From a virus (lineage: Duplodnaviria > Caudoviricetes), in the IMG/VR virus record IMGVR_UViG_3300020202_000013, positions 1-51,014 of that record: a stretch of 51,014 nt of DNA; one strand, written 5' to 3'. Position 1 is the first letter of the stretch; every line of letters starts with the position of its first letter. Shown piece by piece: positions 6,331-42,344 of this stretch. A program made the position numbers and the translations under genes. The notes beneath the pieces are model-generated. The model made no database searches and had not been told where the DNA came from. It saw nothing but the letters and a program-made list of their open reading frames with translations.

Positions 6331-6570
6331 ATGACTCGCGTTCCTCCCGCCGACCTTGAAACCGCAATCCTCGTTTGGCTCCGCAGATGCCCGAAGTCGA
6401 TATGGAAGGGCTTCGAGGAGTATGAAACGCTCAAAGCCGAGAAGCGGCACGACCCGACCAGCGCGCCTGACCCGAAGAAGGCGCTGGCGGCTTACATGGT
6501 CGCCTGTTTCCTCCGGGCGGATTGGGCCGTCGAGATGCCGGAGCGCGGCAATATGTTCGGGGATCGCTGA
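6331..6570 (+). CDS. hypothetical protein (MTRVPPADLETAIL...), probably SOS-regulated
   Basis: ATG 2 nt after the SOS box; helical protein-like sequence. Confidence 0.65.
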   Translation: MTRVPPADLETAILVWLRRCPKSIWKGFEEYETLKAEKRHDPTSAPDPKKALAAYMVACFLRADWAVEMPERGNMFGDR

Positions 6571-6769
6571 TCTCCAGGATCCGCCGGCCTGAAAGTGCAC
6601 GAGCGCTTTTTCCGCTTTCCCCGGTTCTCCTGCGACCGGTGCTTGACCATATCCGCGTCGCCCGAACCACCCCCGGCAAGCGCCCATACGCTCACGGCCT
6701 TCTGCAGCTCTGCCGTCATCTCGCCCTACTCCGATGCACAAATTCATGAAGAATTCGTAACCGGGAAGA

Positions 6770-6785
6770 GTTAAAGCGGGTTTAA
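6770..6785 (-). promoter_or_regulatory. CtrA-binding consensus TTAA-N7-TTAAC
   Basis: Minus strand reads TTAA ACCCGCT TTAAC; full consensus in a GC-rich genome. Confidence 0.5.
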
Positions 6786-7055
6786 ATCCAACGACTGTCT
6801 GGCCGCAGGTTGAACAGGTCATAACCCATTGGTCTGGAGATGTTATCTACATTCTAGGGGCAGTTCTCAGCGGTCATTTATCACGTGCTTGCATAGCTGA
6901 TTATCGCGATCGTACCTGTCCCAACGAAGTGCGAATCCTCCTCGCACCATCACGCAACTCAGGTCGATGCCTGCGTGGGTCGAGCACTAAACAGTTATCC
7001 TCTCATCGCGGATTTGCGAGATTTGGAGCAGCTTGGAAGGCTAGTGAGTGCCTTC

Positions 7056-7885: not shown

Positions 7886-8124
7886 GAAGGTTCAAGATGA
7901 ACCTATACCCCCGAATCCATGCCATTGGATGGGATCAGGTGCGCCTCGAAACCCTTTGAAAACCAGCGAAAACCAGCGAATGCGGCGAGGTGCCTCGTCT
8001 TCGGGAGGCAGGGGCCGGAGGTTCGAATCCTCTCTCCCCGACCACATTTTCTGCCGTTTTCTGATTGAGCTGCACAGTGGTCGAAGGTTCGTTTGAACCT
8101 CGCCATCTCGCTCCGAGGTTCACC
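7886..8124. mobile_element. attP region with candidate integrase arm-type sites
   Basis: AGGTTC..TGAACCT motifs at about 7888-7904 and 8085-8100, GAGGTTCA near 8115, tandem GAAAACCAGC at 7958-7977, flanking a tRNA-derived core. Confidence 0.7.
7997..8044 (+). tRNA. 3' half of tRNA-Pro(CGG), the attP core (not a full tRNA)
   Basis: TTCGGGA anticodon loop, GGAGG-TTCGAAT-CCTCT T-arm, acceptor 3' strand ending CCGACCA; no 5' half; next to integrase. Confidence 0.88.
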
Positions 8125-9094
8125 ATGCTCCGGCATTGGCTGCCTTTCTGAGGTAAGTCGGGCTGTACCGGGCATAATGCTTCTGGGTCGTGCGATCGTC
8201 ATCATGGCCCATAAGCTGAGCGATTTCAGGCATCGGCACCCCATCTTCGGCGCGCCAGACGGCGCCGGTATGGCGGAGCGTGTAGGGTGTCGCGTGGACA
8301 CCGCTCCTTTTGCTCGCGGCTTGGAACGCTTTCTTGATGTTCGCGAGACCTTTCCCCCCACGCTCGATCACGTTTTCCGACTGCCGGTTCTCGTAAGCCT
8401 CCTTCAGCGGCTGCATGAGATAATCAGCGATGGGCACGACAGGCCGCCGCTTCGCCGTCTGCGCGCGATCCGGAGGGTTGAGGTTGATGAGGCCGCGATC
8501 AAAGTCCACGCGGGACCATGTGATTTCAAGGATCGCAGTTGGCCGGGCGCAGGTGGCGATCGCGATGATCATGTAGAGATGCGCATGTGGCGCCTTCACC
8601 TCAGCGAGGAAGCGCCGAAACTCGGCTCGGGATAGATGCCGCTCCTGGCGCTCGGGAGCAGCCGGCCTCCAGATTTCCGGCGCCTCAGCGATGAACTTCT
8701 TCTCCTTCGCCCACCGGAGAGCCACCGAAAGCATTCCCAGCTCATAGCGCACGGTCGCTGCCGCCTTCTTCCGCGTGGCCGCGTAGCCTTGCGCCATCTC
8801 CTCGTCGATGAGGCGCGGCGCTACGTCCGCCCAGAACGACTTCATCGCCTTCCAGGCGTCCCGCTGCCGGCTCGTCGTCGCAATGCCTGCCCGTTCGCGA
8901 TCGTCGAGATAGGCTTCCATCACGCGGCCCACGGTCCAGGGAGAACGGTCGCCGAGTCTCCACCGCTGCCTCGCCTCTGCCTCCGCCCCGATACGATCGG
9001 GCGCGGTAAGGATGTTGCGACGTCGCTTTCCTCCCTCGTCCTTCCAGACGATGGCAAATCCGTCGCGGAATCGTTGGACGCTATATTCGGGCAT
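8120..9094 (-). CDS. int: tyrosine recombinase, phage integrase
   Basis: TCARPTAI (R), PYTLRHT, MGH...TTQKHY catalytic motifs; points to attP. Confidence 0.95.
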   Translation of the reverse strand: MPEYSVQRFRDGFAIVWKDEGGKRRRNILTAPDRIGAEAEARQRWRLGDRSPWTVGRVMEAYLDDRERAGIATTSRQRDAWKAMKSFWADVAPRLIDEEMAQGYAATRKKAAATVRYELGMLSVALRWAKEKKFIAEAPEIWRPAAPERQERHLSRAEFRRFLAEVKAPHAHLYMIIAIATCARPTAILEITWSRVDFDRGLINLNPPDRAQTAKRRPVVPIADYLMQPLKEAYENRQSENVIERGGKGLANIKKAFQAASKRSGVHATPYTLRHTGAVWRAEDGVPMPEIAQLMGHDDDRTTQKHYARYSPTYLRKAANAGAW

Positions 9095-14540: not shown

Positions 14541-14930
14541 TCAATCATCCGGCGGGATGTAATCAGGCCAGAAGTCCGGCTCTTCCGTAGGTGGCTTCGG
14601 AGGTGAGGGCAGGGTCAGAACCTCGCCGTCGAAGGCAGCCCGAATGACCGCGCCATAGGCGGCCTTGTGTTGGAAGACGGCTTTGATTTCCCGGCCGTCC
14701 GCGATCATCCCGCCAATCCAGCCGCAGCGCTCCGCAGTCAGGTAGCCGATCTGCACGCCTCGCATGCTCAGCACGGCGACGGCTCTGGGGTCAGCGGGGT
14801 TCTTAGGCTCTGGAATAAGCTGCACCGGCTCACCCGGCTTGCAGATTTCGATCTCGAAGCGTCGGCCAGGTCCGCGCTTATTTTCATAATCTGCCCCGAC
14901 CACGGCGAGGCTTAACTGGCTCATGCCCAC
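14541..14930 (-). CDS. stand-alone HIRAN domain protein
   Basis: VVGADY...LIPEPKNPADPRAVAV...QIGYL. Confidence 0.85.
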   Translation of the reverse strand: MGMSQLSLAVVGADYENKRGPGRRFEIEICKPGEPVQLIPEPKNPADPRAVAVLSMRGVQIGYLTAERCGWIGGMIADGREIKAVFQHKAAYGAVIRAAFDGEVLTLPSPPKPPTEEPDFWPDYIPPDD

Positions 14931-14939
14931 CGCGGCACC

Positions 14940-15257
14940 TCAGCGGACCTCGCGCCCCCAGAAGTCCAGCTTTGGCGGCGGCGGCACGTCGGAGTGGCAG
15001 AAGCGGCATTTCAGCGCTTCCGATTGGATCACTTCAGCGCAAACCGGGCACTTGCGCATTGCCCCTGACTGGAGGCCGGCCCGCTTCGAGCGCGTGTCCT
15101 GCTTATCCTTGTCGGGTGAGGCCACCGCTGATCCCAGCAGGCCGAGCGGCCCCAGCAAGACGCCAATAATGAAGAACCCGGCACCGCTCCTGCCCTTGCT
15201 TCGCGCCACCATTGCCGACGCCAAGCCGCAGATCAGCCATATGATTACGAGGGTCAG
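14940..15257 (-). CDS. membrane protein with C-terminal double zinc ribbon; probable CTG start
   Basis: ARSKGRS..GFFIIGVLLGPLGL, CPVCAE...CRFC; GGAGG RBS then CTG overlapping the cI stop. Confidence 0.75.
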   Translation of the reverse strand: MTLVIIWLICGLASAMVARSKGRSGAGFFIIGVLLGPLGLLGSAVASPDKDKQDTRSKRAGLQSGAMRKCPVCAEVIQSEALKCRFCHSDVPPPPKLDFWGREVR

Positions 15258-15979
15258 ATGCGCCTCCCGATCCAGATGACGCGACCGATCACAGCCACTT
15301 CACCGTCGCCCACTTCGTCTGGCCGGACCAGCTGATTATCCGGCATGAGGAGCCACGAGCCTCGAGGCGTGACGCGGATTCGGCGGATCATCCCGAGGTC
15401 CCCGTAAGCGACTGCCCAGATGCGATCCTGGTCATCAATGCGCCGGTGGGCAGTGTCAACGAGGACGATGTCTCCGTCCATGATCGTCGGCTGCATCGAG
15501 TCTCCGCTGCCGCGCGTGACCTTCAGCCGCTCAATCGGGCCTTGGTGGAGGCCCCGGAGCCAGTCGGTCCGGAAGGGGACAATCCCCATCACCTCGGCAT
15601 GCCCTTGGAGGAACGAGGCACCCATTCCCAACGGGAGGTCGATCTCCTCGATAAGCGCGAGGCCGTGCTCGCTTGCGATGTCCGCCAAGGAGGTGGGTGG
15701 CGCCTTGTCGGTTGAGGGTTGCCTTACCGCGTCTCGCGGCAGCTCACCGTCAGGCAGGGCGCCACCCTTTAACAGCCAATCGGTCGGCACGCCCAGTATC
15801 CTCGCGAAGTCTGGAGCCCGCTTCGCGAAGCCGTTCTGATTGCCCTCATAGGCCCGGTATGTCGTGGGATGGATCTTGGCGGCTCGGGCGAAGCTCGCTG
15901 CATCATGGTAGCCCGCCCGCTCGCGCGCCCACTCCAGTCGGCCGCCCGGTGTGTCGAGATCCTGCTCACCTTCCATCAT
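15254..15979 (-). CDS. cI: CI-like repressor (HTH + S24 peptidase)
   Basis: RLEWARERAG..HTH; GSGDSMQPTIMDGDIVLVD; VIGRVIW. Confidence 0.92.
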   Translation of the reverse strand: MMEGEQDLDTPGGRLEWARERAGYHDAASFARAAKIHPTTYRAYEGNQNGFAKRAPDFARILGVPTDWLLKGGALPDGELPRDAVRQPSTDKAPPTSLADIASEHGLALIEEIDLPLGMGASFLQGHAEVMGIVPFRTDWLRGLHQGPIERLKVTRGSGDSMQPTIMDGDIVLVDTAHRRIDDQDRIWAVAYGDLGMIRRIRVTPRGSWLLMPDNQLVRPDEVGDGEVAVIGRVIWIGRRI

Positions 15980-15987
15980 GGCGAGCG

Positions 15988-16044
15988 TGTTGCACAACGT
16001 AGCGCTACAAATCATGTTGCGCTCTGGCGCTACGAATGATAGCG
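15988..16044. promoter_or_regulatory. right operators between cI and cro
   Basis: CGCTACGAATGATAGCG (16028-16044), CGCTACAAATCATGTTG (16003-16019), weaker TGTTGCACAACGTAGCG (15988-16004). Confidence 0.75.
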
Positions 16045-16051
16045 AGTGCTC

Positions 16052-16297
16052 ATGCACAGCTTCACGGATCACGCGTCGCTTCTCGCCGTCCTCGGTGGCG
16101 GGGCTGAAGTCGCCTCAGGGATCAATGCGCTTCCGGTCACGGTCCGCGCCTGGTCAGCGCGAAATCGGATACCGCCGGAGTATTGGCCTGACATCATCAG
16201 ACTGAGCGAAACCAAGGGGCATCCCGTCACGGCCGAATGGCTGATGCACTCGACGCCTGCCCGGAAGCGCGAAGAGCAGCAGGCGGAGGCAGCCTGA
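16052..16297 (+). CDS. cro: Cro-like repressor
   Basis: LGGGAEVASGI....TVRAWSARNRIPPEYW; divergent from cI. Confidence 0.85.
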   Translation: MHSFTDHASLLAVLGGGAEVASGINALPVTVRAWSARNRIPPEYWPDIIRLSETKGHPVTAEWLMHSTPARKREEQQAEAA

Positions 16298-23971: not shown

Positions 23972-24415
23972 ATGCCCGGACCTCTGAAAAACGCGCGCCA
24001 AGAGCGGTTTGCGCAGGAACTTGCGAAGGGCAGGTCGCAGGTCGATGCCTACCAGGCTGCCGGATACAAGCCGGATCGCGGGGCAGCGACGAGGCTGTCA
24101 GCAAATGTCAGCGTCGCGGCTCGGGTCGAAGAGTTGAAGGGGAGGGCCGCTGACAAGGCCGCCATCACCGTCGCCGACATCGCCCGCCAGCTCGACGACG
24201 ACCGGGCATTCGCCAAGGCGTGCAACTCTCCGGCTGCCATGGTCTCGGCCACGCTCGGCAAGGCGAAGGTCCTGGGCCTAATCAAGGAACGCCACGAGCA
24301 CACCGGCAAGGACGGGGCACCGATCGAGTATCGGAACCTGCCGGAGGAGGAGATCGACGCTCGTCTCGCAGCGTTGGCGGCGAAGAATGCTGAACCTCGC
24401 AAACTGGCCAATTGA
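23972..24415 (+). CDS. terS: terminase small subunit
   Basis: LKNARQERFAQELAKG..AYQAAGY; HEHTGKDGAPI. Confidence 0.88.
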   Translation: MPGPLKNARQERFAQELAKGRSQVDAYQAAGYKPDRGAATRLSANVSVAARVEELKGRAADKAAITVADIARQLDDDRAFAKACNSPAAMVSATLGKAKVLGLIKERHEHTGKDGAPIEYRNLPEEEIDARLAALAAKNAEPRKLAN

Positions 24416-25919
24416 GGACAAGCGAGAGGCGCTTGCACTCCTCGAAGCGAAGGCTGCCCATGAGGAGCGCCGTCGCAGGGAAGCGGAACAGCAGCGCCTC
24501 CGCGAGACTGAGGGGCAGATCCGCGAGCGATGCCGGACCCTCTCCGGCTTCATCCGCGAAGCTTGGCACGTCCTCGAACCTTCGAACCCGTACATCCATG
24601 GCTGGCACGTCGACGCGATCGCCGAGCACCTGGAGGCAATCACCCACGGGCAGATCAACCGGCTGCTGATCAACGTCCCGCCCGGCACCATGAAATCGCT
24701 GCTGACGGGCGTTCTCTGGCCGGCTTGGGAGTGGGGACCGATGGGGAGGCCTGCCACCCGCATCATCGGCTCGAGCTATTCCGAGGATTACGCCAAGCGC
24801 GACAATCGGCGGATGCGCGACCTGGTGACGTCGGACTGGTATCGGGCTCTGTGGGGCGACACGGTGCAGCTGGTCCGCGCTGGCGAGATGGCGTTCAGCA
24901 ATACCGCGACGGGCTTCAGGCAGGGCATCCCGTTCTCGCGCCTCACCGGCGGCCGTGGTGATCGGGTGATTATCGACGACCCACACAGCGTCGACGGCGC
25001 CGAGAGCGAGGCTGAGCGCGGCAGCACCATCCGGACCTTTCGCGAATCCGTGCCCACCCGCCTCAATAACCCGAGCAAATCGGCGATCGTCGTCATCATG
25101 CAGCGGCTGCACGAGCAGGACGTCTCCGGGACCATCCTCGCGCTGAACCTCGGCTATGAGCACCTGATGCTGCCGATGGAGTTCGAGCCGGAGCGGGCCT
25201 GCCACACCAGCATCGGGTTCACGGATCCGCGCACCTACGATGGCGAGCTGCTGTTCCCGGAGCGCTTTCCCCGTGAGGTGGTGGAGCGCGACAAGGTCCC
25301 GATGGGCTCCTATGCGGTGGCAGGGCAGTTCCAGCAGCGCCCAACCCCTCGATCAGGCGGCATGTTCCAGCGTGGTGACTTCCAGATCGTGGATGCGGTG
25401 CCGGCCAAGGTGCAGCGTCGGGTGCGAGCCTGGGACTTCGCAGCGTCGAAGCCGAAGCCGGGGAAGCAGCCGGACTGGACCGTGGGGCTGCGGATGAGCT
25501 GGGCCGATGGTGTTTTTTACGTGGAGAGCGTGACGCGGGGCAGATGGGGCCCGGCCGACGTCGAACGGACGCTGAAGAACGTCGCCTCGCAGGACGGGCC
25601 GAGCGTCACCATCCGCATGCCGCAGGATCCCGGCGCTGCGGGCAAGGCCGACGCCGAGACCAAGGTGAAGCTGCTGCAGGGCTATGGGACGGTCGTGAAG
25701 CCGATCAGCGGCGACAAGGCGACCCGGGCGCGGCCGGCATCAGCGCAGGCGGAGGCGGGGAACGTGAAGCTGGTGCGCGGGGAGTGGAACGAGGCCTTCC
25801 TGGATGAGGTCTGCTCGTTCCCGAACAGCATGTTCGATGACCAGGTGGATGCGTTTGCCGATGCGCTTAACGAGCTGGCGCTGGGGTCGAGCTATAATAT
25901 TTTGAACGCGCTGACGTGA
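24387..25919 (+). CDS. terL: terminase large subunit
   Basis: NVPPGTMKS, VIIDDP, MQRLHE, RAWDFA, DDQVDA. Confidence 0.95.
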   Translation: MLNLANWPIEDKREALALLEAKAAHEERRRREAEQQRLRETEGQIRERCRTLSGFIREAWHVLEPSNPYIHGWHVDAIAEHLEAITHGQINRLLINVPPGTMKSLLTGVLWPAWEWGPMGRPATRIIGSSYSEDYAKRDNRRMRDLVTSDWYRALWGDTVQLVRAGEMAFSNTATGFRQGIPFSRLTGGRGDRVIIDDPHSVDGAESEAERGSTIRTFRESVPTRLNNPSKSAIVVIMQRLHEQDVSGTILALNLGYEHLMLPMEFEPERACHTSIGFTDPRTYDGELLFPERFPREVVERDKVPMGSYAVAGQFQQRPTPRSGGMFQRGDFQIVDAVPAKVQRRVRAWDFAASKPKPGKQPDWTVGLRMSWADGVFYVESVTRGRWGPADVERTLKNVASQDGPSVTIRMPQDPGAAGKADAETKVKLLQGYGTVVKPISGDKATRARPASAQAEAGNVKLVRGEWNEAFLDEVCSFPNSMFDDQVDAFADALNELALGSSYNILNALT

Positions 25920-26152: not shown

Positions 26153-26313
26153 GTCAGAGGGTGACGCCTATCCCGGCGATCTATGCCGATGATCCGGACG
26201 AGACTGCAGGCCGAGCGCTTTACCGGGCGCAAGCCGACAGACTGGCTCGGGAGCAACTCGCTTACGAACGACGGACGGTCTCGCTGAAGAAGAGGGGCCA
26301 GACCGCGCCGTAA
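26149..26313 (+). CDS. small hypothetical protein (54 aa, MSQRVTPIPA...)
   Basis: Read manually; AGGAG RBS, ATGA overlap. Confidence 0.45.
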   Translation: MSQRVTPIPAIYADDPDETAGRALYRAQADRLAREQLAYERRTVSLKKRGQTAP

Positions 26314-26339
26314 CCGCTGACCGCCGCTCCCGGTAATTT
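26307..26339 (+). promoter_or_regulatory. late promoter GCCGTAA-N20-TAATTT; probably leaderless portal mRNA
   Basis: ATG 8 nt after the -10 box, no SD sequence. Confidence 0.65.
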
Positions 26340-26347
26340 CCGGCCCC

Positions 26348-28756
26348 ATGGGCCTGATCACCACCCTCCGCGACGGCTTCGCCAACATCATGACCGGCAC
26401 CGGAACGTCTGTCGATAAGCGCGCATATGGCGGGTTTGTCCACGCCCCGATGTCGCCGCAGCAGATCGAGGCGGCCTACCGCGGTTCATGGCTGATGCGG
26501 AAAGCCATCAAGCGCCCAGCAAAGGACATGACCCGCGAGTGGCGCGATTGGCAGGCCGAAAAGCGCGAAATCACGTTCCTTGAAGCGGCGGAGCGGAAGC
26601 TCGGCCTGAGGGACAAGATCAGGCGGGCGCTCATCCTAGGGCGGCTTGGAGGCGGCGCGATCATCATCGGAGCCCCTCAGGGCAACCCGCTCCTCCCGCT
26701 CAACCTGAAGGCGATTGGCGAAGGTGGCCTGCGCTACCTTCACGTCGTCTCCCGCTGGCAGCTGACTCTTGGGCCAATGATCACCGACCCGGAGAACGAT
26801 CTGTGCGGACAACCGGAATACTTCGAATTGCACGGCTCTGGCGCCAGGGAGAAAATTCACCCCTCACGCGTGTTGGCATTTCGCGGCGAGCAAGTTCCAG
26901 AGATGGGCGTCGGCCGCTTCGATGACACGTTCTGGGGCGATAGTCTCGTGCAGGTCATTCACAGCGCCGTGCTGAACGCTGAGGCTGCCCAGAGCAATAT
27001 CTCAAGCCTGATCGACGAAGCGAAGATCGACGTCGTGAAGGTCAAAGACCTGATGGCGAACGCGGGCAGCAAAGAATACGAAACGGCTTTCATGCGTCGG
27101 ATCGAGCTCGCCCAGGCCGGGAAGAGCGTGCACCGCGCCCTGATCCTCGATTCCGAGGAGGATTGGCAGCAGAAGCAAATCACCTGGAATGGCATTCCGG
27201 ACGTGCTTCGGACCTACCTCGCGATCGTCGCGGGTGCTGCAGATATCCCGGCCACGATTCTGCTCGGCAAATCGCCGGACGGCATGAACGCCACGGGAGA
27301 TGCCGACTTCCGCGCCTACTACGATCAGATTCGATCGGACCAGGATAATGACCTGCGTCCCCTGATCGAGCGGCTAGACGAAGTCCTCATCAGATCGACA
27401 TTCGGCAGACCTCTCGCGGATGTGGGCTTCACCTTCGCGCCCCTGTGGCAGCTGGACGAGAAGGAGGCCGGGGAGGTTGAGAACAAGTTCGCGGACACGG
27501 TCACCAAGCTCGTCAACAGCGGCACCGTGCCCGTGGATGCGCTCTCAAAGGCCGTCCAGAACCGCATGGTCGAAAGTGGGCAGTGGCCAGGCCTGGATGG
27601 GGCGCTCGATGAGTCTGACGGCGAGCTGCCGGGCCAAGAGGAAGACGAGGCCGATCCCTCCGATCTTCAGGCTGCGAACGAGAACAACGTGGTCCAGCTG
27701 CGCCGCCGTGGGTCAATCACTGCCGACCAGGCAACCGCGCTCCTCACGGACGCCAAGCCACGCACCCTCTACGTCCAGCGCAAGCTCCTGAACGGGGCCG
27801 AATTCATCCGCTGGGCGAAGGGGGAGGGGTTCGAGACCACCACGCCCGCCGACGAGTTGCACGTCACCATCTGCTTCAGCCGCACGCCGGTCGATTGGAT
27901 GAAGATGGGCAGCGAGTGGAGCAGCAGCGAGGATGGCAAGCTGACCGTCCCTGCTGGCGGTGCGCGCCTGGTAGAGAAGCTGGGCGACAAGGGCGCGGTC
28001 GTGCTGCTGTTCGCCTCCTCCTCGCTCGCCTGGCGGCACGAGGACATGAAACGGAACGGGGCAAGCTTCGACTTTGACGAATATCAGCCGCACGTCACGA
28101 TTACCTATCAGGCACCGGCAGACCTCGATCTCTCCAAGGTCGAGCCCTTCCGCGGCAAGCTCGTGTTCGGGCCGGAGATCTTCTCCGAGGTGGAAGAGGA
28201 TTGGGAAAAGAGCCTCGTCGAAGACGGAGGTGGGCCGAACGCCGATCTCCCTTTCGCTGATGCGAAGCGGCGCCGTGGTGGGGGCGCAGGAAGCCGGCCT
28301 GGCTTCAACCAAGCGCAGCCTCGCGGTCGGGACGGGCGATGGGTCGAGACCGGCGCTGGTAAGACGAACATCCGAAGCCACGTTGCCAAGGCGCTGAAGG
28401 ACAAGACGTTCAAGCAGGACCATGAGTTCGGCCGCGTGACCGGCAACGCACCCCCGCACGTCATCGGCAGCCGGAGGGTGGCGAATGCTCAAGAGATCAG
28501 GAAGAACCACGGGCGGCATGGCGATCCGGTAACGGAGGCTGCTCGCGGACAGGCCCCGGTCACTGCTCGCGACTATGGCAGGATCCCGGAGATCACCGCG
28601 AAAGGCACCTATCGGGAGATCGGAACCAAGGGTGCCCGAAAGCCGGTTCGTGTCGAGTACCGGGTCCGCATCGGCAAGCACGAGTATGTCTACACGGAGA
28701 CGGTCGGGGCAGCGCGGCAAAGGGTCGCGCTCATCTCGCTGTACAAGAAGCTGTGA
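26348..28756 (+). CDS. portal protein (DUF1073-type) fused to Acb1-like 2H-phosphoesterase and C-terminal PBECR3-like nuclease
   Basis: Portal motifs (IHPSRVL, WGDS, GAADIPATILLGKSPDGMNATG..D); two HVT motifs; FNQAQPRGRDGRW; RHG..EAARGQAPVT..D...IPEI...YTETV...LYKK. Confidence 0.88.
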   Translation: MGLITTLRDGFANIMTGTGTSVDKRAYGGFVHAPMSPQQIEAAYRGSWLMRKAIKRPAKDMTREWRDWQAEKREITFLEAAERKLGLRDKIRRALILGRLGGGAIIIGAPQGNPLLPLNLKAIGEGGLRYLHVVSRWQLTLGPMITDPENDLCGQPEYFELHGSGAREKIHPSRVLAFRGEQVPEMGVGRFDDTFWGDSLVQVIHSAVLNAEAAQSNISSLIDEAKIDVVKVKDLMANAGSKEYETAFMRRIELAQAGKSVHRALILDSEEDWQQKQITWNGIPDVLRTYLAIVAGAADIPATILLGKSPDGMNATGDADFRAYYDQIRSDQDNDLRPLIERLDEVLIRSTFGRPLADVGFTFAPLWQLDEKEAGEVENKFADTVTKLVNSGTVPVDALSKAVQNRMVESGQWPGLDGALDESDGELPGQEEDEADPSDLQAANENNVVQLRRRGSITADQATALLTDAKPRTLYVQRKLLNGAEFIRWAKGEGFETTTPADELHVTICFSRTPVDWMKMGSEWSSSEDGKLTVPAGGARLVEKLGDKGAVVLLFASSSLAWRHEDMKRNGASFDFDEYQPHVTITYQAPADLDLSKVEPFRGKLVFGPEIFSEVEEDWEKSLVEDGGGPNADLPFADAKRRRGGGAGSRPGFNQAQPRGRDGRWVETGAGKTNIRSHVAKALKDKTFKQDHEFGRVTGNAPPHVIGSRRVANAQEIRKNHGRHGDPVTEAARGQAPVTARDYGRIPEITAKGTYREIGTKGARKPVRVEYRVRIGKHEYVYTETVGAARQRVALISLYKKL
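27755..28220 (+). other. Acb1-like (anti-CBASS) 2H-phosphoesterase domain within portal ORF
   Basis: RTLYVQRKLLN...ELHVTICFS (27860)...YQPHVTITY (28091)...FGPEIF. Confidence 0.8.
28300..28756 (+). other. PBECR3-like RNase domain within portal ORF
   Basis: HG-x-E..RGQ..T..D...IP motif and terminal beta strands ending SLYKKL. Confidence 0.65.
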
Positions 28757-28830
28757 AGGTGGGCCCGCGGGGTCAGATGCCGAAGCCCCTGACCGGTGAC
28801 ACGTCCGAAACACGGCGGGCCCAGGACCTT
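28756..28830 (+). ncRNA. candidate structured RNA immediately 3' of the nuclease domain
   Basis: AAGGT/ACCTT and TGGGCCCGC/GCGGGCCCA outer stems, GGTCAG/CTGACC inner stem, unpaired ACGTCCGAAAC. Confidence 0.6.
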
Positions 28831-28856
28831 GATAGTCGCAAGCAGCTGAATTTTCA

Positions 28857-29654
28857 ATGACCGAGATTGACCTTCCGAAGCTGGTCCGGGCACGCGGCAT
28901 CCGGCGCACCATCACAATCCGCCCGATCATGCCGCCGCGCACGCTCGCCAAGGAGCTGCTGAACGCGCTCTACGCCCCGAGCATCAGAATGTGGGCAGCC
29001 GGGCTTGACCGGATCCTCGCCGCATACGAGCAGACGCTTTCGCAGCTGACCACGGACTCGCCGGCCGACATCGATCGGGAGATTGGCGCGTCGGCATCCG
29101 CCTTTGATCGCCTGCTCCTCGTTCTGACGCCGGCGCTGCGGAATTGGGGCGTGCGGGTCGAGCGCTGGCATCGCGGCCGATGGATTGCGAACGTGCTCTC
29201 GGCAACCTCGATCGACCTCGGCACCATGCTGACGATCGGGGACGTCGAGGAGACCGTGGACGTGGTGATCCGCCGCAACGTGTCGCTGGTCAGGGACGTG
29301 TCGGAGCAGGCAAGGGGCCGCATTGCCGATGCCGTGTTCCGAGGCGTGCAGCAGCGTACGCCAGTACGGGAGGTGGCGAAGGAGCTGCGCGAGGCGGTCG
29401 AGATGGGGCGCCAGCGGTCAATCCGCATCGCGGCGGATCAGGCGACGAAGCTCACCACCGCCCTCGACACCGAGCGCATGAAGCAGGCGGGCATCGAGAA
29501 GTGGGAATGGAAGCATTCGGGGAAGCTCCATCCCAGGCAGCAGCATCTGGCGCGGGATGGGAAGGTCTACACCTTCGACGATCCGCCCGCTGATATGCCT
29601 GGGGATCTGCCGTTCTGTGGGTGCCGGAAGCTCGCGGTGATCGAGTTGGATTAG
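28857..29654 (+). CDS. minor head protein, MuF/SPP1 gp7 family
   Basis: RIAADQATKL...WEWKHSG...RQQHLARDGKVY...PGDLPFCGC. Confidence 0.9.
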   Translation: MTEIDLPKLVRARGIRRTITIRPIMPPRTLAKELLNALYAPSIRMWAAGLDRILAAYEQTLSQLTTDSPADIDREIGASASAFDRLLLVLTPALRNWGVRVERWHRGRWIANVLSATSIDLGTMLTIGDVEETVDVVIRRNVSLVRDVSEQARGRIADAVFRGVQQRTPVREVAKELREAVEMGRQRSIRIAADQATKLTTALDTERMKQAGIEKWEWKHSGKLHPRQQHLARDGKVYTFDDPPADMPGDLPFCGCRKLAVIELD

Positions 29655-30133
29655 CGGCGCCGAGGCTGAGGAAGCGAATCCAGCCTGGGTCGATGCCCAT
29701 CGGTGACGATTTCAAAATCACAGCGTTTGCATTGCAGCATTGTCATCCGCCCAGCGGAAATAAGTTCGGTCTGTAGAACCGACTTCCTTCGGTCATCAAA
29801 GCAGTTTGGGCAGAGCCACACCCTCGGATCTTCGAACTCGGTCCGCTGAAACGCGTACGTGCCTTGAGCCACCTCCTTGAGCGCGTACTTGGCGGCCTCC
29901 TCCTCCCACGCTTTCATTGTCGCCAGTGTGTTTCGCAGGCTCTCAATCTCGGCCTGGAGCTTCGCCTCGGATTCCGCTGCTTCGACGGCTTGGAGGCGGG
30001 CACTCAACAACTGGTCCAGCATGTCGCTGATCGCCTGCTTCACATCGGTCGTGGTCTGAAGCGCCTGGACGCCTTTGGCGATATCGAAGGCGGCTTTGAT
30101 GCTGCCGATCGCAGCTGCAGTTTCTGTGAGCAT
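29651..30133 (-). CDS. coiled-coil plus zinc-ribbon moron protein
   Basis: AIGSIKAAFDIAKG...WLCPNCFDD.RKSVLQ...CKRC; GAGG RBS; antisense within head module. Confidence 0.75.
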   Translation of the reverse strand: MLTETAAAIGSIKAAFDIAKGVQALQTTTDVKQAISDMLDQLLSARLQAVEAAESEAKLQAEIESLRNTLATMKAWEEEAAKYALKEVAQGTYAFQRTEFEDPRVWLCPNCFDDRRKSVLQTELISAGRMTMLQCKRCDFEIVTDGHRPRLDSLPQPRRR

Positions 30134-30186
30134 TCTGCCGTCTACCTCAGTGCGAGCGCCGCCGCCACCTAGTAGCGCCAGCAGCC

Positions 30187-30219
30187 GCCGTAACGTCGAC
30201 CCGCCGCAATCGCCAAATT
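30187..30219 (+). promoter_or_regulatory. late promoter variant GCCGTAA-N20-CAAATT
   Basis: Same spacing; ATG 8 nt downstream, same cggccccATG context as the portal. Confidence 0.55.
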
Positions 30220-30227
30220 GCGGCCCC

Positions 30228-30350
30228 ATGGCGTCGGCGATCTACAATTCGACAATCGCAGAAGAGGCGCGGGCCTATTCTGGGAACCTCGGCTTCGCGA
30301 ATGGCGTGCTCCGGCCGGCGGTCACCCAGCACACCGGAGCTTATGCATGA
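30228..30350 (+). CDS. 40-aa ORF MASAIYNSTIAEE..., possible gene remnant
   Basis: Leaderless start after promoter motif, ATGA-coupled to next gene. Confidence 0.45.
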   Translation: MASAIYNSTIAEEARAYSGNLGFANGVLRPAVTQHTGAYA

Positions 30351-31147
30351 TCCTCACAGCGCTCGCCATTGTCGCGGCCACACCATCGACGATCCATTCC
30401 GCTCTGTGGGAAGCCAAGCCTGGCGACACCATCAAGCTCACTGCGGGCGATTATGGTACGGTGACGATCAAGGACCGGAACTGGCCCAAGCGGATCACGC
30501 TCAACGCTTCCGGTGCCAAGCTAAGGCTGGTCATCCAGAACTCCAGCGGAATCTACGTCAATGGAGGCACTTTCGGGCCCAACATGGACGGCGCGGGTTA
30601 TGCGGCCCAGGTGCAACTCTCGAAGGATGTAACCTTCTACAAGTCGGCGTTTGTGAATAGCAAACGCGGGCTGGTGATCGATCGCTCGCAACGCGTGAAG
30701 GTCAGCTATGCCCGTTTCTCGGAGATGACGATCGATGGCGTCAACATCGCTCTCTCCCAGCAGGTGACCGTTTTGAACATCGTCTGCGAGAAGTTCGACA
30801 CTGGCGAGGCACACCCGGACTGCGTCCAGGGCTGGTCCAGGCCCGGCGGCATCACGTCCGATGTGCTGGTGGAAAAGGTGACTTTGAACGGGCCGAAGGT
30901 GCAGGGGATTTTCTTCGGCAATCATGTCCGCAACGGCGTCAATGACGGCGGCTACGACCGCATCGTCATCCGGAACAACTCAATCACCGGGTCCTATCCG
31001 CAGGGCATCGGCCTCTACGAGTGCCGCAACTGCGAGGTGACGGGAAATCGAGTGTCGACGCTACCCGGATCCAAGCATCGGGTGAGCATCAACATCGTTG
31101 GCGGGTCGGTGAAGGCCGAGAACAACAGCGTGGGGCCGAAGCCGTAG
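30347..31147 (+). CDS. right-handed parallel beta-helix protein (pectin-lyase-like)
   Basis: AKPGDTIKLTAGDYG, HPDCVQ, repeated beta-coil strands; short hydrophobic N-terminus. Confidence 0.8.
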   Translation: MILTALAIVAATPSTIHSALWEAKPGDTIKLTAGDYGTVTIKDRNWPKRITLNASGAKLRLVIQNSSGIYVNGGTFGPNMDGAGYAAQVQLSKDVTFYKSAFVNSKRGLVIDRSQRVKVSYARFSEMTIDGVNIALSQQVTVLNIVCEKFDTGEAHPDCVQGWSRPGGITSDVLVEKVTLNGPKVQGIFFGNHVRNGVNDGGYDRIVIRNNSITGSYPQGIGLYECRNCEVTGNRVSTLPGSKHRVSINIVGGSVKAENNSVGPKP

Positions 31148-31160
31148 CGCGATTCGTGCC

Positions 31161-31193
31161 GCCGTAAATCGCACGTGGGGCCGCCGCTACATT
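31161..31193 (+). promoter_or_regulatory. late promoter GCCGTAA-N20-TACATT; leaderless start at 31201
   Basis: Motif family; ATG 7 nt after the -10 box. Confidence 0.7.
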
Positions 31194-31200
31194 GCCGGCC

Positions 31201-32391
31201 ATGTTCATGGCAGATCAGCTCACGCTCGACACTCCGCGCCGCACCAAGGAAGGTTACGTCGCGGTCCGGGCCAAAGCAGCTCGAGCAGGCGTGTACGACT
31301 ATCTTGGCGCCGAGGTCGATCCGGAGGGCAAGCGCTTCCGGGCCACCGACACCGTCAAGGTCTACCGCTCGGAAGACGAGGTATTCGATCCGGCCTCTCT
31401 CCACAGCTTCCTGATGAAGCCGATCACGGACAATCATCCCAGCCAATCGGTCACGGCCTCCAATTGGAAGGATCTGGCCGGCGGCGTCATCGCCAAGGCC
31501 ATCCGAGACGGGGATCACGTCGCGTTCGATCTCGTGCTCATGGACGAGAAGACGATCGCCGCGGTTGATTCCGGCAAGCGCGAGCTTTCGAACGGATATG
31601 CCTGCGAGCTTGAGTTCGGCGATGGCGTGGCTCCTGACGGCACCCCCTACCAGGCTGAGCAGCGCAACATCCGCGGCAATCACGTCGCGATCGTGGACCG
31701 GGCCCGCGGCGGCTCCAAATGCCGGATCGGGGACCAGATCGCTGTCTGCGACGCGATCTCAGTCGAGGACTTCCTCGACCGCCGTAAACCGAACGAGAAC
31801 CCACACCTATTTTCGCCCCAAGTTCAATCGAGGGACTCCAAGATGCCTCACGTGCTCATCATCGACGGCCTGCAGGTGCCGAATGTCTCTGACGAGGCCA
31901 AGGCCGCGATCGAGAAGCTGCAGGGGCAGCTGAAGGACAGCACCGGTACCGCCGAGCGTCTTCAGGGTGATTTGCAGACCGCTACCGGCTCAATTGCCGC
32001 CAAGGACGGTGAGATTGCGGTCCTCAAGCAGCAGCTCGCGGACGCAACGGACCCGGTGAAGCGGCAGCAGGAAGCCGCCGCCCGCGCCTCTCTCATCGGG
32101 GACGCCAAGCGCATCCATCCCACCGTGCAGATCGGTGACGCGATGACCGACGCCCAAATCCGCAAGGCCGTTGTCGACGCCAAGGTGCCGAACCACACGC
32201 TCGGCGACGACGAAAAGGCCATTGGCGGCGCATTCAGCATGTTGGTCGCCACGACGCCAACCCAAACGAACGACAGCCTCCGCACGGTCATCGCATCCGG
32301 CGTGACGAACGTCGCTGACGCAGCTGCGGTCGAATCCGCCGCGCTCAACAAGGCGAACGACTTCAACTCCTGGCGGAACCAGGCCGCTTAA
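31201..32391 (+). CDS. DUF2213 prohead protease/scaffold protein
   Basis: ARAGVYDYLG, KPITDNHP, RELSNGY, NHVAIVDRARGG; coiled-coil C-terminal half. Confidence 0.9.
   Translation: MFMADQLTLDTPRRTKEGYVAVRAKAARAGVYDYLGAEVDPEGKRFRATDTVKVYRSEDEVFDPASLHSFLMKPITDNHPSQSVTASNWKDLAGGVIAKAIRDGDHVAFDLVLMDEKTIAAVDSGKRELSNGYACELEFGDGVAPDGTPYQAEQRNIRGNHVAIVDRARGGSKCRIGDQIAVCDAISVEDFLDRRKPNENPHLFSPQVQSRDSKMPHVLIIDGLQVPNVSDEAKAAIEKLQGQLKDSTGTAERLQGDLQTATGSIAAKDGEIAVLKQQLADATDPVKRQQEAAARASLIGDAKRIHPTVQIGDAMTDAQIRKAVVDAKVPNHTLGDDEKAIGGAFSMLVATTPTQTNDSLRTVIASGVTNVADAAAVESAALNKANDFNSWRNQAA
31781..31813 (+). promoter_or_regulatory. internal late promoter GCCGTAA-N20-TATTTT for nested scaffold gene
   Basis: Followed by GAGGGA RBS and in-frame ATG at 31843. 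Confidence 0.65.
31843..32391 (+). CDS. nested in-frame scaffolding protein (MPHVLIIDGL...)
   Basis: Own promoter motif and RBS; coiled coil. Confidence 0.6.
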   Translation: MPHVLIIDGLQVPNVSDEAKAAIEKLQGQLKDSTGTAERLQGDLQTATGSIAAKDGEIAVLKQQLADATDPVKRQQEAAARASLIGDAKRIHPTVQIGDAMTDAQIRKAVVDAKVPNHTLGDDEKAIGGAFSMLVATTPTQTNDSLRTVIASGVTNVADAAAVESAALNKANDFNSWRNQAA

Positions 32392-33844: not shown

Positions 33845-34153
33845 ATGCCCAAGCACAGCTTCAAGAACATGAGCGACGGTCCCCGGGTGCTCAACTCGAA
33901 CCCACCTCAGATCCTTCAGCCCGGCGGCGAGACGGACGGCCCGGTTGACATCAGCGATGCCGAGCTGAAGTCGATGCGGTCTGCCGGCTATTTCGAGATC
34001 GACGGAAGCTCGGACAGTGACGAGCTCGTCTCGCTCTCCGGGAAGAACAAGGATCAGCTGCTTCAGATCGCCAAGGACGAGGGCGCCGACGTCCCCGAGG
34101 GCGCTACCAACGCCCAGATCGTCGAGGCGATCGAAAAGAAGCGGGCCAGCTAG
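33845..34153 (+). CDS. capsid-associated protein with C-terminal HeH/LEM-like motif
   Basis: KDQLLQIAKDEGADVPEGATNAQIVEAI. Confidence 0.7.
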   Translation: MPKHSFKNMSDGPRVLNSNPPQILQPGGETDGPVDISDAELKSMRSAGYFEIDGSSDSDELVSLSGKNKDQLLQIAKDEGADVPEGATNAQIVEAIEKKRAS

Positions 34154-41003: not shown

Positions 41004-41422
41004 TGGCGAGGGACAGCTCGCTGCCGCTCCGGGTGGCGATACTGACTTACCTGAGGGCTGACGGGGCGCGGACTGGTCCTGCTCCCTCTGAGCGGGTGTA
41101 CGGCCTGGCTACGCCTCCGGACCCCATCAAGCCCTTCACCCGCTACGGCACTCCCACCGTGCTTCCCGACCGCGCCTCCTGCGTCGATGGCAGCCGGATC
41201 TTGGTGACGCTCCACGCCTTCTCCGACGCCGACAGCGAGGACGAAGCTTCCGAGATCGCAGCAGCTATGGCGAGCGCGCTGGACGGTGCCACGCTGACCC
41301 TCGCAGCGGATTACGAAGCCAAGGCGCGGATTGCCTGGACTGGCGGCCAGATCCTGCCCGATCCGGAGGAAGCAAGCTCCTGGCATGCTGTCGTGAACTT
41401 CGAGGCGACGGTCACGAGCTAG
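41003..41422 (+). CDS. tail terminator (DUF3168)
   Basis: RVYG...PFTRYG...LHAFS...WHAVVNF. Confidence 0.82.
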   Translation: MARDSSLPLRVAILTYLRADGARTGPAPSERVYGLATPPDPIKPFTRYGTPTVLPDRASCVDGSRILVTLHAFSDADSEDEASEIAAAMASALDGATLTLAADYEAKARIAWTGGQILPDPEEASSWHAVVNFEATVTS

Positions 41423-42344
41423 GTGGCGCGACGGCCTGCCCTATGGTTGCGCCGATCCGGTGCCTCAACTTGTTCCTCAGATCCTCCGGGTCGTCCCATA
41501 CGATATGATTGAACTGCCGCGTATCAAAATGCACGCGCTCGAGGTCTGACGACCTGACACACCAAATCACGGGTATGCCCAGTCCCAAGGCGAAACCGGC
41601 TTCGAAGTAGACGCCTCCACGAGCGCCGGTATCGCCGCAGCTGAAGTCGGCAACGACGAACCTAGCGCGTCGTATCTCGCTGATGATCTCATCATCGATC
41701 TTGTTGTTGTGTTCTCGATCATCGATGCGAACAGCCGTATATCCGTTTTCTTCGATCGCCGGACGGATACCGTCGGTGTACGCTGGCGACATCTCGCTCG
41801 AAAACCACATCGCGACAAAGCCGCTGGTGGACTCTGCATTCGGACGTTCCAGGTCTTCCACGTAGAAGAAAGCACGAAGGTTGACGGAAACTCGAGTGCC
41901 ACTCGTACTGAATTCCAGGTCCAGAAGCTTCTCCTGGGCGGCGTGATGAAGCAGTGTTCGCAGCTCCGCGACGCTTGAGACACCGGTTAATCGCATGAGC
42001 CCGTGTGGCTCTTCGGCTTCGGATATGAACAAGCGCGAATGGTGAGAGGAGGCAGACCGTACGAGAGTGCGAAGCAGCCGATCGAATTTCTGCTTCATCG
42101 GGACTGGTGGCTGCCGCAATATCTGTTTGATATTCCACGTCATCAACTCGACAGGATCTTCCCCAGCGTTGTCGAGGATATAGCGAGTGAGCGCGGTCCG
42201 GTGTTTGGTGAGTAGATCGGGCATGGCCGACAGCAAGCTTCCGCTTACAAAATAGCGCTCATTGCCTCCGAGCCGGGCCTCGAGACCGTCCCGGCTTGAG
42301 GGCACAATGACGTCATCGGGCCAAAGTAGCTTCTTTGCTGGCAT
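41412..42344 (-). CDS. nucleoside 2-deoxyribosyltransferase/TIR-like domain protein (moron, candidate defence effector)
   Basis: GFVAMWF...IRPAIE..GY.AVRID...IDDEIISEIRRARFVVADF...RGGVYFEAGFALGLGIPVI...HFDTRQFNHI. Confidence 0.8.
   Translation of the reverse strand: MPAKKLLWPDDVIVPSSRDGLEARLGGNERYFVSGSLLSAMPDLLTKHRTALTRYILDNAGEDPVELMTWNIKQILRQPPVPMKQKFDRLLRTLVRSASSHHSRLFISEAEEPHGLMRLTGVSSVAELRTLLHHAAQEKLLDLEFSTSGTRVSVNLRAFFYVEDLERPNAESTSGFVAMWFSSEMSPAYTDGIRPAIEENGYTAVRIDDREHNNKIDDEIISEIRRARFVVADFSCGDTGARGGVYFEAGFALGLGIPVIWCVRSSDLERVHFDTRQFNHIVWDDPEDLRNKLRHRIGATIGQAVAPPSS

Follow-up and report, generated by a model that had tools for sequence, protein, structure and literature searches.

What does a phage gain from a portal protein that carries two enzyme-like domains behind its structural part? 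This question is raised by a gene of a soil phage, IMG/VR virus record IMGVR_UViG_3300020202_000013 (Duplodnaviria; Caudoviricetes), the 51,014 bp of which are called the window below. The gene, at positions 26348 to 28756, forms one unbroken frame of 802 codons, which holds a portal domain, an Acb1-family 2H phosphodiesterase domain and a PBECR3 domain of the BECR fold, with two disordered linkers between them (Table 1). A DUF1073-type portal, a 2H/Acb1 domain and a nuclease-like third domain had been read from the letters of the DNA alone (the original prediction), and all three calls were right, as judged from Pfam, the PDB, a custom profile and structural alignment with VIA-align.

The fusion is interpreted here as a polyvalent head protein, the two enzymatic cargo modules of which would be packaged, freed and delivered with the DNA; the chances of this interpretation are considered slightly better than even. 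With two distinct effector domains on one chain, encoded among virion genes, the protein is polyvalent in the sense of Iyer 2017 (PMC5512222). Neither the architecture nor the meaning proposed for it is new: both are known from the surveys of Iyer 2017 and Iyer 2022 (PMC9503650), from which such an architecture is to be expected; the present case is an intact example in a complete genome. What is contributed here is a swappable slot for the third domain and a conserved junction motif in front of it. Comparisons are also made with Hobbs 2022 (PMC9117128) and with the paper on phage Pam3 (Yang 2023, PMC9942802).

Domain layout and integrity of the frame

The portal domain scored 324.1 bits with the Phage_portal_3 profile (cutoff of 33.8), and positions 1-357 of the 357 positions of this profile were covered. 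The profile, PF06381, is that of the family also known as DUF1073. In addition, residues 7-620 match phrog_146 ("portal protein") with an E-value of 1.5e-134. The fusion is the single portal gene found in the 51-kb genome, as a search of the whole record gave one match.

The full-length AlphaFold2 model, built with an alignment of 93 sequences, has a mean predicted local distance difference test score (pLDDT) of 86.3 and contains three well-folded domains. Structure prediction, which had been proposed per domain, gave three folded units, the third of which was also confidently folded when modelled alone. The folded portal body reaches approximately residue 425, mostly with pLDDT above 90. Low confidence is confined to residues 1-10, 429-440, 633-658, and 665-672, the last three segments having pLDDT below 50. 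The acidic linker and the basic, glycine-containing linker with FNQAQPRGRDGRW, both noted in the original prediction, are present and match the low-pLDDT segments. In linker 1, the disordered stretch is followed by two helices (residues 438-454 and 459-468).

As the sequence derives from a metagenome assembly, the long open reading frame (ORF) might be an assembly chimera or hide a frameshift, in which case the real phage would make separate proteins. A stop or a frameshift between the domains, which the original prediction had named as something that would refute it, was looked for and none was found. Run X1 (perhaps the source sample) gave a contig that spans positions 26300-28900 with 0 differences. 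A contig of 2134 nt from run X2, which belongs to a second soil-metagenome study, aligns with positions 26670-28803 without a single difference or gap, and takes in both inter-domain linkers as well as the stop codon. Because this contig from the second study is identical across both junctions, an assembly artefact is effectively excluded. The same three-part layout is also seen in eight database proteins and in another locus from viral contigs (L012, 810 residues). A chimera or a hidden frameshift is accordingly regarded as extremely unlikely.

The Acb1 domain

The Acb1 profile gave 138.6 bits (cutoff of 27) and was covered from position 1 to 143 of 144. The domain matches the solved Acb1 structure (PDB 7t26) with an E-value of 7.2e-10, and the match with residues 457-618 of the Pam3 portal (PDB 8hds; E-value of 1.3e-35) is stronger. 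The HxT motifs that had been reported at 27860 and 28091 are exactly there, at residues 505 and 582, and the reasoning from the paired motifs to an Acb1-type 2H enzyme is borne out by the alignment with 7t26 and by the PF23474 score. In Acb1, the active site is a tetrad of two HxT motifs (H44, T46, H113, and T115), which works by metal-independent acid-base catalysis, and the H44A/H113A mutant is dead (Hobbs 2022). Residues 472-621 carry both sequence-level marks of the Acb1 family, that is, the profile and the HxT/HxT tetrad.

The 2H fold family and the tetrad are common to this domain and to Acb1 (T4 gp57B, and the Acb1 of Erwinia phage FBB1, PDB 7t26/7t27). Acb1 proper is a free protein, with 144 residues in the 7t26 chain, whereas the present domain lies inside a structural protein of 802 residues and its activity is predicted from sequence. 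Portal-Acb1 fusions were said in the original prediction to be known, which agrees with the names given at NCBI, where members of 619-625 residues are labelled "anti-CBASS protein Acb1 family protein", with the Pam3 structure 8hds, and with the text of Iyer 2017. Portal-Acb1 fusions are abundant, and the cultured phages that have such a protein include Pseudomonas phages phiPSA1 and MR15, Rhizobium phages RHEph04-06, Synechococcus phage Ssp-JY39, and Pam3. All these portals are bipartite and end right after the Acb1 domain, whereas in the present protein a third domain is added. A close comparison is offered by the portal gp3 of cyanophage Pam3 (8hds, 621 residues; Yang 2023), which has the same portal family and the same C-terminal Acb1-type domain. 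The cement protein of the present genome also belongs to a family shared with that phage (E217 gp24/Pam3 gp6). The C-terminal enzyme domain is not discussed in the cited passages of the Pam3 paper, and the main text of Hobbs 2022 makes no mention of portal or fused forms.

The PBECR3 domain

The Pfam PBECR3 profile (PF18812) matches residues 708-800 with an E-value of 7.4e-5; the score was 23.1 bits with the whole protein and 27.3 bits with the C-terminal piece, both below the curated cutoff of 30. A phmmer search with residues 622-802 against 1.84 billion representatives gave 89 proteins at E ≤ 1e-3, 14 of them at E ≤ 1e-10, and most of the 44 matches that were scanned with Pfam exceed the PBECR3 cutoff. 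A custom profile was made from 34 domains that passed the cutoff, leaving out the query and its nearest subclade. The third domain scored 104.3 bits with this profile, as compared with 12.4 bits for the best shuffle (2000 shuffles, 1950 scored), with the reservation that the query had been included when the alignment behind the profile was made.

Modelled alone, the third domain has pLDDT above 90. It consists of a helix (residues 714-724) and four strands (754-758, 768-775, 778-787, and 792-801). Foldseek with the C-terminal model found nothing in the PDB at E ≤ 0.001. In a VIA-align comparison with approximately 48,000 representatives of the PDB, the first 18 rows hold nothing but RNase toxins of the RelE/ParE/BECR type, with Z values of 7.2 to 4.0; every one of them is below 8, a range in which the tool warns of a mere common arrangement. 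The best match is BrnT (3u97; Z 7.2, root-mean-square deviation 2.7 over 75 residues), followed by a Salmonella toxin-antitoxin toxin (Z 6.6), CdiA-CT from E. coli NC101 (Z 6.1) and from Klebsiella (Z 5.2), RelE (Z 5.0), and colicin D (Z 4.4). It is therefore the uniform list of toxins, and not the modest Z values, that backs the assignment of the model to the BECR/RelE fold; this evidence is supportive, not decisive. The core common to these toxins (BrnT 3u97, CdiA-CT 5i4q and 6cp9, RelE, and colicin D 5znm) and to the third domain consists of one helix and, after it, a sheet of four strands. The similarity (Z 7.2 to 4.4) extends over 70-89 aligned residues with an identity of just 6-15%. In contrast to these toxins, neither an antitoxin nor an immunity partner was found here, and the comparison of active-site residues was made within PBECR3.

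The active configuration of PBECR domains is a histidine together with a serine or threonine (Iyer 2017). The candidates for this pair are kept in the present domain as His724 and Ser797. Arg718, Glu730, Arg733, Gln735, Asp742, and Glu784 are each the majority residue in the 48-domain alignment. Lys719 replaces the histidine of 35 of the 48 relatives. It looks like an accepted alternative rather than a sign of decay, because only histidine or lysine occurs in this column. Judging from these residues, the PBECR3 domain is expected to be an active enzyme. It should be added that the RNase activity of PBECR3 is itself a prediction of the paper that named it (Iyer 2017).

The replaced residues might also be taken to mean that the third domain is a non-enzymatic nucleic-acid binder, which would organise the genome end at the portal. 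This would resemble the MuF protein of phage Mu, which bears an inactive PBECR domain with a predicted RNA-binding role (Iyer 2017). The change at position 719, a glycine at position 787 where 28 of the 48 relatives have arginine, and the basic character of a domain that would adjoin the DNA within the head all fit such a role. However, the two family-defining residues, His724 and Ser/Thr797, are both retained, and a column occupied solely by histidine or lysine speaks for a tolerated functional alternative. Moreover, an ADP-ribosyltransferase takes the place of this domain in near-identical portals, as described below, which points to an effector slot and not to a structural one. A purely binding role is thus held to be improbable.

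A swappable third position behind a conserved junction motif

A homologue search in 5.8 billion clusters gave 1773 proteins at E ≤ 0.001, the best 120 of which were listed (119 without the query). The list is ranked by the full-length score, and long forms like the query are over-represented in it. Among these 119 proteins, 99 have 604-678 residues and end just past the Acb1 domain, at the point where linker 2 starts. The remaining 20 have a third domain, which is of the PBECR3 type in eight, an ADP-ribosyltransferase (PF03496) in two, and a domain of approximately 230 residues in ten. The statement in the original prediction that the third domain is less usual is in line with these counts. 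The eight PBECR3-type proteins (781-807 residues) align over 99-100% of the query. Six of them reach E < 0.01 with Pfam PBECR3, and P0004 and P0021 score 84.6 and 45.8 bits, respectively, with the custom profile. In a scan of viral contigs, the relatives are mostly bipartite and only L012 is tripartite. Among 50,697 deposited phage genomes, 995 records match, and not one of them covers at least 80% of the Acb1-plus-PBECR3 query.

The short forms end with "...DDWEQSLTEE", whereas the long forms go on through a Gly/Pro-rich stretch to the junction motif and then to the cargo domain. The strict motif, (F/Y)NPxQPR(D/G)xxGRW in the last 40% of the protein, was found in 19 of the 20 long forms and in 0 of the 99 short forms. 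In the 51-kb genome, the junction is the only match of the motif inside an annotated gene; five looser matches lie elsewhere.

A comparison of P0004, P0016, and P0029 shows what happens at this point. These three proteins are 94-96% identical over approximately 650 residues before the motif and 24-29% identical after it, which is the noise level. Their third domains are PBECR3-like in P0004, the domain of approximately 230 residues in P0016, and an ADP-ribosyltransferase in P0029. This means that the third position is a slot, placed behind a conserved junction motif, in which the cargo can be swapped. To judge from the protein sequences, the three appear to differ by a recent replacement of the cassette, either at the motif or directly behind it. 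The contigs that encode these three proteins were not among the matches returned by a metagenome scan with P0004.

The motif is not restricted to the present family. Its variants are (F/Y)NPxQPR(D/G)xxG(R/K)W and xxHPR(D/G)xxGKF, and in 22 of the 41 proteins examined it precedes the PBECR3 core by approximately 50 residues. The PBECR3 cassette with the motif was found on three portal families (PF06381, PF04860, and Portal_Mu) and on MuF. A description of the motif was not found in the passages of Iyer 2017 that were searched, which do not extend to its figures and supplements. The main text of Jamet 2017 (PMC5576092) never mentions a motif, a linker or cleavage, and a literature search for the motif string QPRD together with MuF yielded no paper.

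It is tempting to regard the motif and its xxHPR(D/G)xxGKF variant as a dedicated cargo-junction signal of head proteins, which would serve as a recombination point between unrelated portals and MuF proteins and perhaps also as a site of cleavage by the head protease or by the cargo itself. Secreted polymorphic toxins have demarcation motifs, to which such a signal would correspond. This suggestion is a tentative one and is, on the whole, doubtful. If it were true, injected phage effectors could be found systematically, whatever their fold, and a processing or recombination signal would make it possible to list, by sequence, the effectors that phages deliver from the head. The near-isogenic cargo swaps and the junction motif are considered the part of this analysis that is worth following up.

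Several observations were made on the relatives. The domain of approximately 230 residues is carried by P0016, P0017, P0028, P0030, P0037, P0044, P0057, P0068, P0071, and P0072, which have 855-888 residues. It has no Pfam match at E ≤ 10 in the four of these ten that were scanned, and no sequence match in the PDB for the one that was searched. A search of a protein atlas with a language model points to RelA/SpoT nucleotidyltransferases with a score of 0.93, which is a lead only. If it were confirmed, the ten relatives would be portals bearing effectors similar to alarmone synthetases. P0191, a fragment of 387 residues, has a portal part followed by the motif GFNPAQPRDPDGRW, a long stretch rich in Pro, and a C-terminal domain that is rich in Cys and not related to PBECR3; this is another type of cargo in the same slot. 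P0136, with 19 linker matches, was discarded as a low-complexity translation of a tandem repeat. In L012, an ORF of 132 residues without a PHROG match lies between the portal and MuF genes (6492-6890, plus strand of that locus) and is a candidate for an immunity or accessory gene. No cognate immunity gene was found downstream of the present fusion, where the gap of 100 bp to the MuF gene holds no plus-strand ORF of at least 50 residues.

Independence of the two cargo modules

The presence of a 2H domain and a putative RNase on one chain might suggest a coupled pair, in which 2',3'-cyclic phosphate ends are produced by the PBECR3 RNase and then processed by the 2H domain. The target would then be RNA and not the nucleotides used by the antiphage signalling system CBASS, which is based on cyclic oligonucleotides. 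Such ends, left by metal-independent RNases, are indeed processed by 2H enzymes; PHROGs name the 2H part "RNA ligase" (phrog_755), and an RNase-like role of 2H domains fused to portal or MuF proteins was considered by Iyer 2017. However, the general 2'-5' RNA ligase family scores 12 bits on this domain, far below the Acb1 score given above, so that the domain is specifically of the Acb1 family. A fixed partnership is not seen among the relatives either: the 99 bipartite homologues carry the 2H domain without any third domain, PBECR3 occurs on portals that have no 2H domain (P0123, P0124, and P0137), and the slot behind the 2H domain also takes an ADP-ribosyltransferase or another unrelated domain. 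A coupled pair is therefore very unlikely. Since each module occurs without the other, the two are predicted to act independently.

Proposed mechanism

Portals are dodecamers, and their C-termini face the interior of the capsid. The present protein would thus combine a portal body, flexible linkers, and two independent enzymatic cargo modules, and, because of this stoichiometry and topology, approximately 12 tethered copies of each enzyme would be enclosed in a virion. The original prediction had likewise proposed a load of about 12 copies of both enzymes, for late action or for ejection; this is a sensible idea that Iyer 2017 and Iyer 2022 had published before. By analogy with the homologous Pam3 portal, in which the 621-residue portal-Acb1 chain is present 12 times (8hds; Yang 2023), the protein probably forms a dodecameric ring at one vertex of the capsid. 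Cleavage in the linkers would then free the enzymes, and the head maturation protease, which is encoded three genes downstream of the fusion, is the obvious candidate for this step. The freed enzymes would leave the particle with the DNA and enter the next cell. There, the Acb1 module would hydrolyse cyclic oligonucleotides of the CBASS type as soon as infection starts, and a host or defence RNA would be cut by the PBECR3 module. A role in the virion is supported by the position of the gene, between the terminase genes and those for the MuF, protease, cement, and capsid proteins.

T4 Alt and other effectors packaged in the head provide a precedent for such delivery (Iyer 2017). The same survey gives fusions to MuF and portal domains as the simplest PBECR architectures and states that 2H domains fused to these proteins could degrade the nucleotides of nucleotide-activated defence systems. 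In Iyer 2022, the head fusions of 2H domains are taken to suggest packaging and injection against signalling by SMODS, cyclic mononucleotides, and CRISPR. The polyvalent proteins of these surveys share with the present protein a portal anchor encoded in the terminase-portal module and a C-terminal 2H or PBECR effector. The 2H-portal and PBECR-portal fusions are separate there, and the presence of both on one portal is not stated in the cited passages of the text, figures aside. The MuF polymorphic toxins (Jamet 2017) are also similar, in that they have a head anchor and a variable C-terminal toxin (RNase, ADP-ribosyltransferase, or RelA/SpoT type) and occur in temperate phages. Their anchor is MuF, whereas here it is the portal, and the separate MuF protein encoded downstream has no effector or toxin domain of its own.

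Provided that packaging and injection of the cargo do occur, the phage would arrive armed against CBASS, and with an RNase, before any expression of its own genes. We know of no demonstration of such delivery before gene expression for any portal fusion. T4 Acb1 is an early-acting enzyme, and the timing of delivery by injection would differ from that of free Acb1. The present protein would be a good test case, as it comes from a complete genome, has two small and well-folded cargo domains with clear catalytic residues, and has close relatives that differ in the third domain only.

Several points stand against packaged and injected cargo. Besides the Pfam scores, the Z values, and Lys719 described above, and the precedent of an inactive PBECR domain in Mu MuF, they concern the release of the enzymes. 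Because the portal stays in the particle, the cargo cannot leave it and would be trapped unless it is cleaved, and no protease site is known. The metallopeptidase domain by which Iyer 2017 explain the processing of polyvalent proteins is absent from the fusion. The junction motif precedes the third domain only, and there is none between the portal and Acb1 domains. The disordered linkers, the conserved junction motif, and the nearby gene for a head maturation protease are circumstantial evidence that the fusion may be processed in the manner of a polyprotein, the term used in the original prediction.

An alternative is that the enzymes act late in the producing cell, as unassembled portal fusion that is probably made in excess, where they would degrade CBASS signals and cut RNA, and that the copies in the capsid are a by-product; cleavage would be unnecessary. 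The gene is part of the late head module and is thus expressed together with structural proteins, Acb1 of T4 works in soluble form in the cytoplasm (Hobbs 2022), and Iyer 2022 also raise head-linked effectors that counter immunity aimed at the packaging apparatus. However, action in the producing cell leaves the covalent tie to a structural protein of 12 copies unexplained, as a free gene would suffice, and it gives no reason for the recurrence of the same cassettes on MuF, another protein of the head interior. Portal topology moreover places the C-termini inside the procapsid, where they are sequestered once it closes. Furthermore, the ADP-ribosyltransferase cargoes resemble known head proteins that are injected, T4 Alt for one (Iyer 2017). 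Action in the producing cell is thus considered the main rival reading, possible though rather unlikely.

Genomic context

The 51,014-bp record has direct terminal repeats and is rated 100% complete, that is, it represents the entire genome of a temperate siphophage. The temperate lifestyle follows from the tyrosine integrase and the CI-like repressor with an S24 peptidase domain, and it agrees with Jamet 2017, where polymorphic effectors anchored to head proteins are associated with temperate phages. Genes for a YqaJ recombinase, a lysozyme, a DNA methylase, and a DnaB helicase are also present. The late module is of the siphovirus type; it begins at approximately 23.9 kb, and its tail genes run to the end of the genome. 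The order of its genes is small terminase (TerS), large terminase (TerL), two small ORFs, portal fusion, MuF, a minus-strand gene, beta-helix protein, DUF2213 protease, cement protein, major capsid protein, and tail genes. The portal fusion therefore sits in the packaging module.

Table 1. Positions of the fusion gene, its parts and key residues, and selected genes of the same genome
Feature	Position	Strand	Residues	Basis or remarks
Portal-Acb1-PBECR3 gene	26348..28756	+	802 residues	Single ORF; stop codon 28754-28756
Portal domain (Pfam Phage_portal_3, PF06381)	26459..27508	+	38-387	E 1.1e-96
Linker 1	27623..27760	+	426-471	Acidic disordered stretch, then two helices of middling confidence
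Acb1-family 2H phosphodiesterase domain	27761..28210	+	472-621	Pfam Acb1 PF23474, E 1.6e-40
First HxT motif	27860..27868	+	H505-V-T507	Aligns with LHTT motif of Acb1 7t26
Second HxT motif	28091..28099	+	H582-V-T584	Aligns with PHIT motif of Acb1 7t26
Linker 2	28211..28369	+	622-674	Gly/basic, disordered; pLDDT <50 at 633-658 and 665-672
Junction motif FNQAQPRGRDGRW, before cargo domain	28304..28342	+	653-665	Strict pattern match
PBECR3 domain, BECR/RelE fold, predicted RNase	28370..28753	+	675-802	Profile, fold, conserved residues
Lys719, mostly His in the family ("iRH")	28502..28504	+	719	His 35, Lys 13 of 48 in this column
His724, "HG" motif, end of core helix 714-724	28517..28519	+	724	His in 47 of 48 aligned domains; invariant in alignment A1
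Ser797, conserved Ser/Thr of last strand 792-801	28736..28738	+	797	Thr 26 and Ser 21 of 48
Tyrosine integrase	8120-9094	-		Lysogeny marker
CI-like repressor with S24 peptidase domain	15254-16072	-		Lysogeny marker
Small and large terminase genes, upstream of portal fusion	23972..25919	+		Pfam Terminase_2, Terminase_6C
MuF-type minor head protein, gene after portal fusion	28857..29654	+		Pfam Phage_Mu_F E 1e-14; phrog_324 "head morphogenesis"
DUF2213/head maturation protease	31192..32391	+		Pfam DUF2213 E 2.6e-55; phrog_530 "head maturation protease" E 1.1e-82

Some further genes of the late module should be mentioned. A minus-strand gene for a protein of 192 residues (29651-30229) lies within the head module, between the MuF gene and the next plus-strand gene. 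It matches phrog_1244, of unknown function, with an E-value of 1e-29, has two CxxC pairs near its C-terminus, and looks like an insertion of the moron type. It was also weighed as an immunity or regulator gene for the cargo, and evidence was found neither for nor against this. The following gene (30218-31147, plus strand), between the MuF and protease genes, codes for a right-handed beta-helix protein of 309 residues (Pfam Beta_helix, E-value of 3.9e-7). This fold is normally of the tail-spike or depolymerase type, and its position in a head module is unusual.

In the tail module, the run of genes is broken up by a minus-strand gene for 310 residues (41412-42344) that matches phrog_16139 with an E-value of 1.6e-49. 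A weak match with the nucleoside 2-deoxyribosyltransferase profile PF05014 (24.3 bits, under the cutoff of 28.8) was also found, and the gene may be another moron, possibly a nucleotide-related one. Directly after the major capsid gene, a gene for 102 residues (33845-34150, plus strand) matches the endonuclease VII family phrog_3281 with an E-value of 1.4e-7. In the early region, a protein of 129 residues with a HIRAN domain (14541-14930, minus strand; E-value of 2.5e-10) is encoded next to the CI-like repressor.

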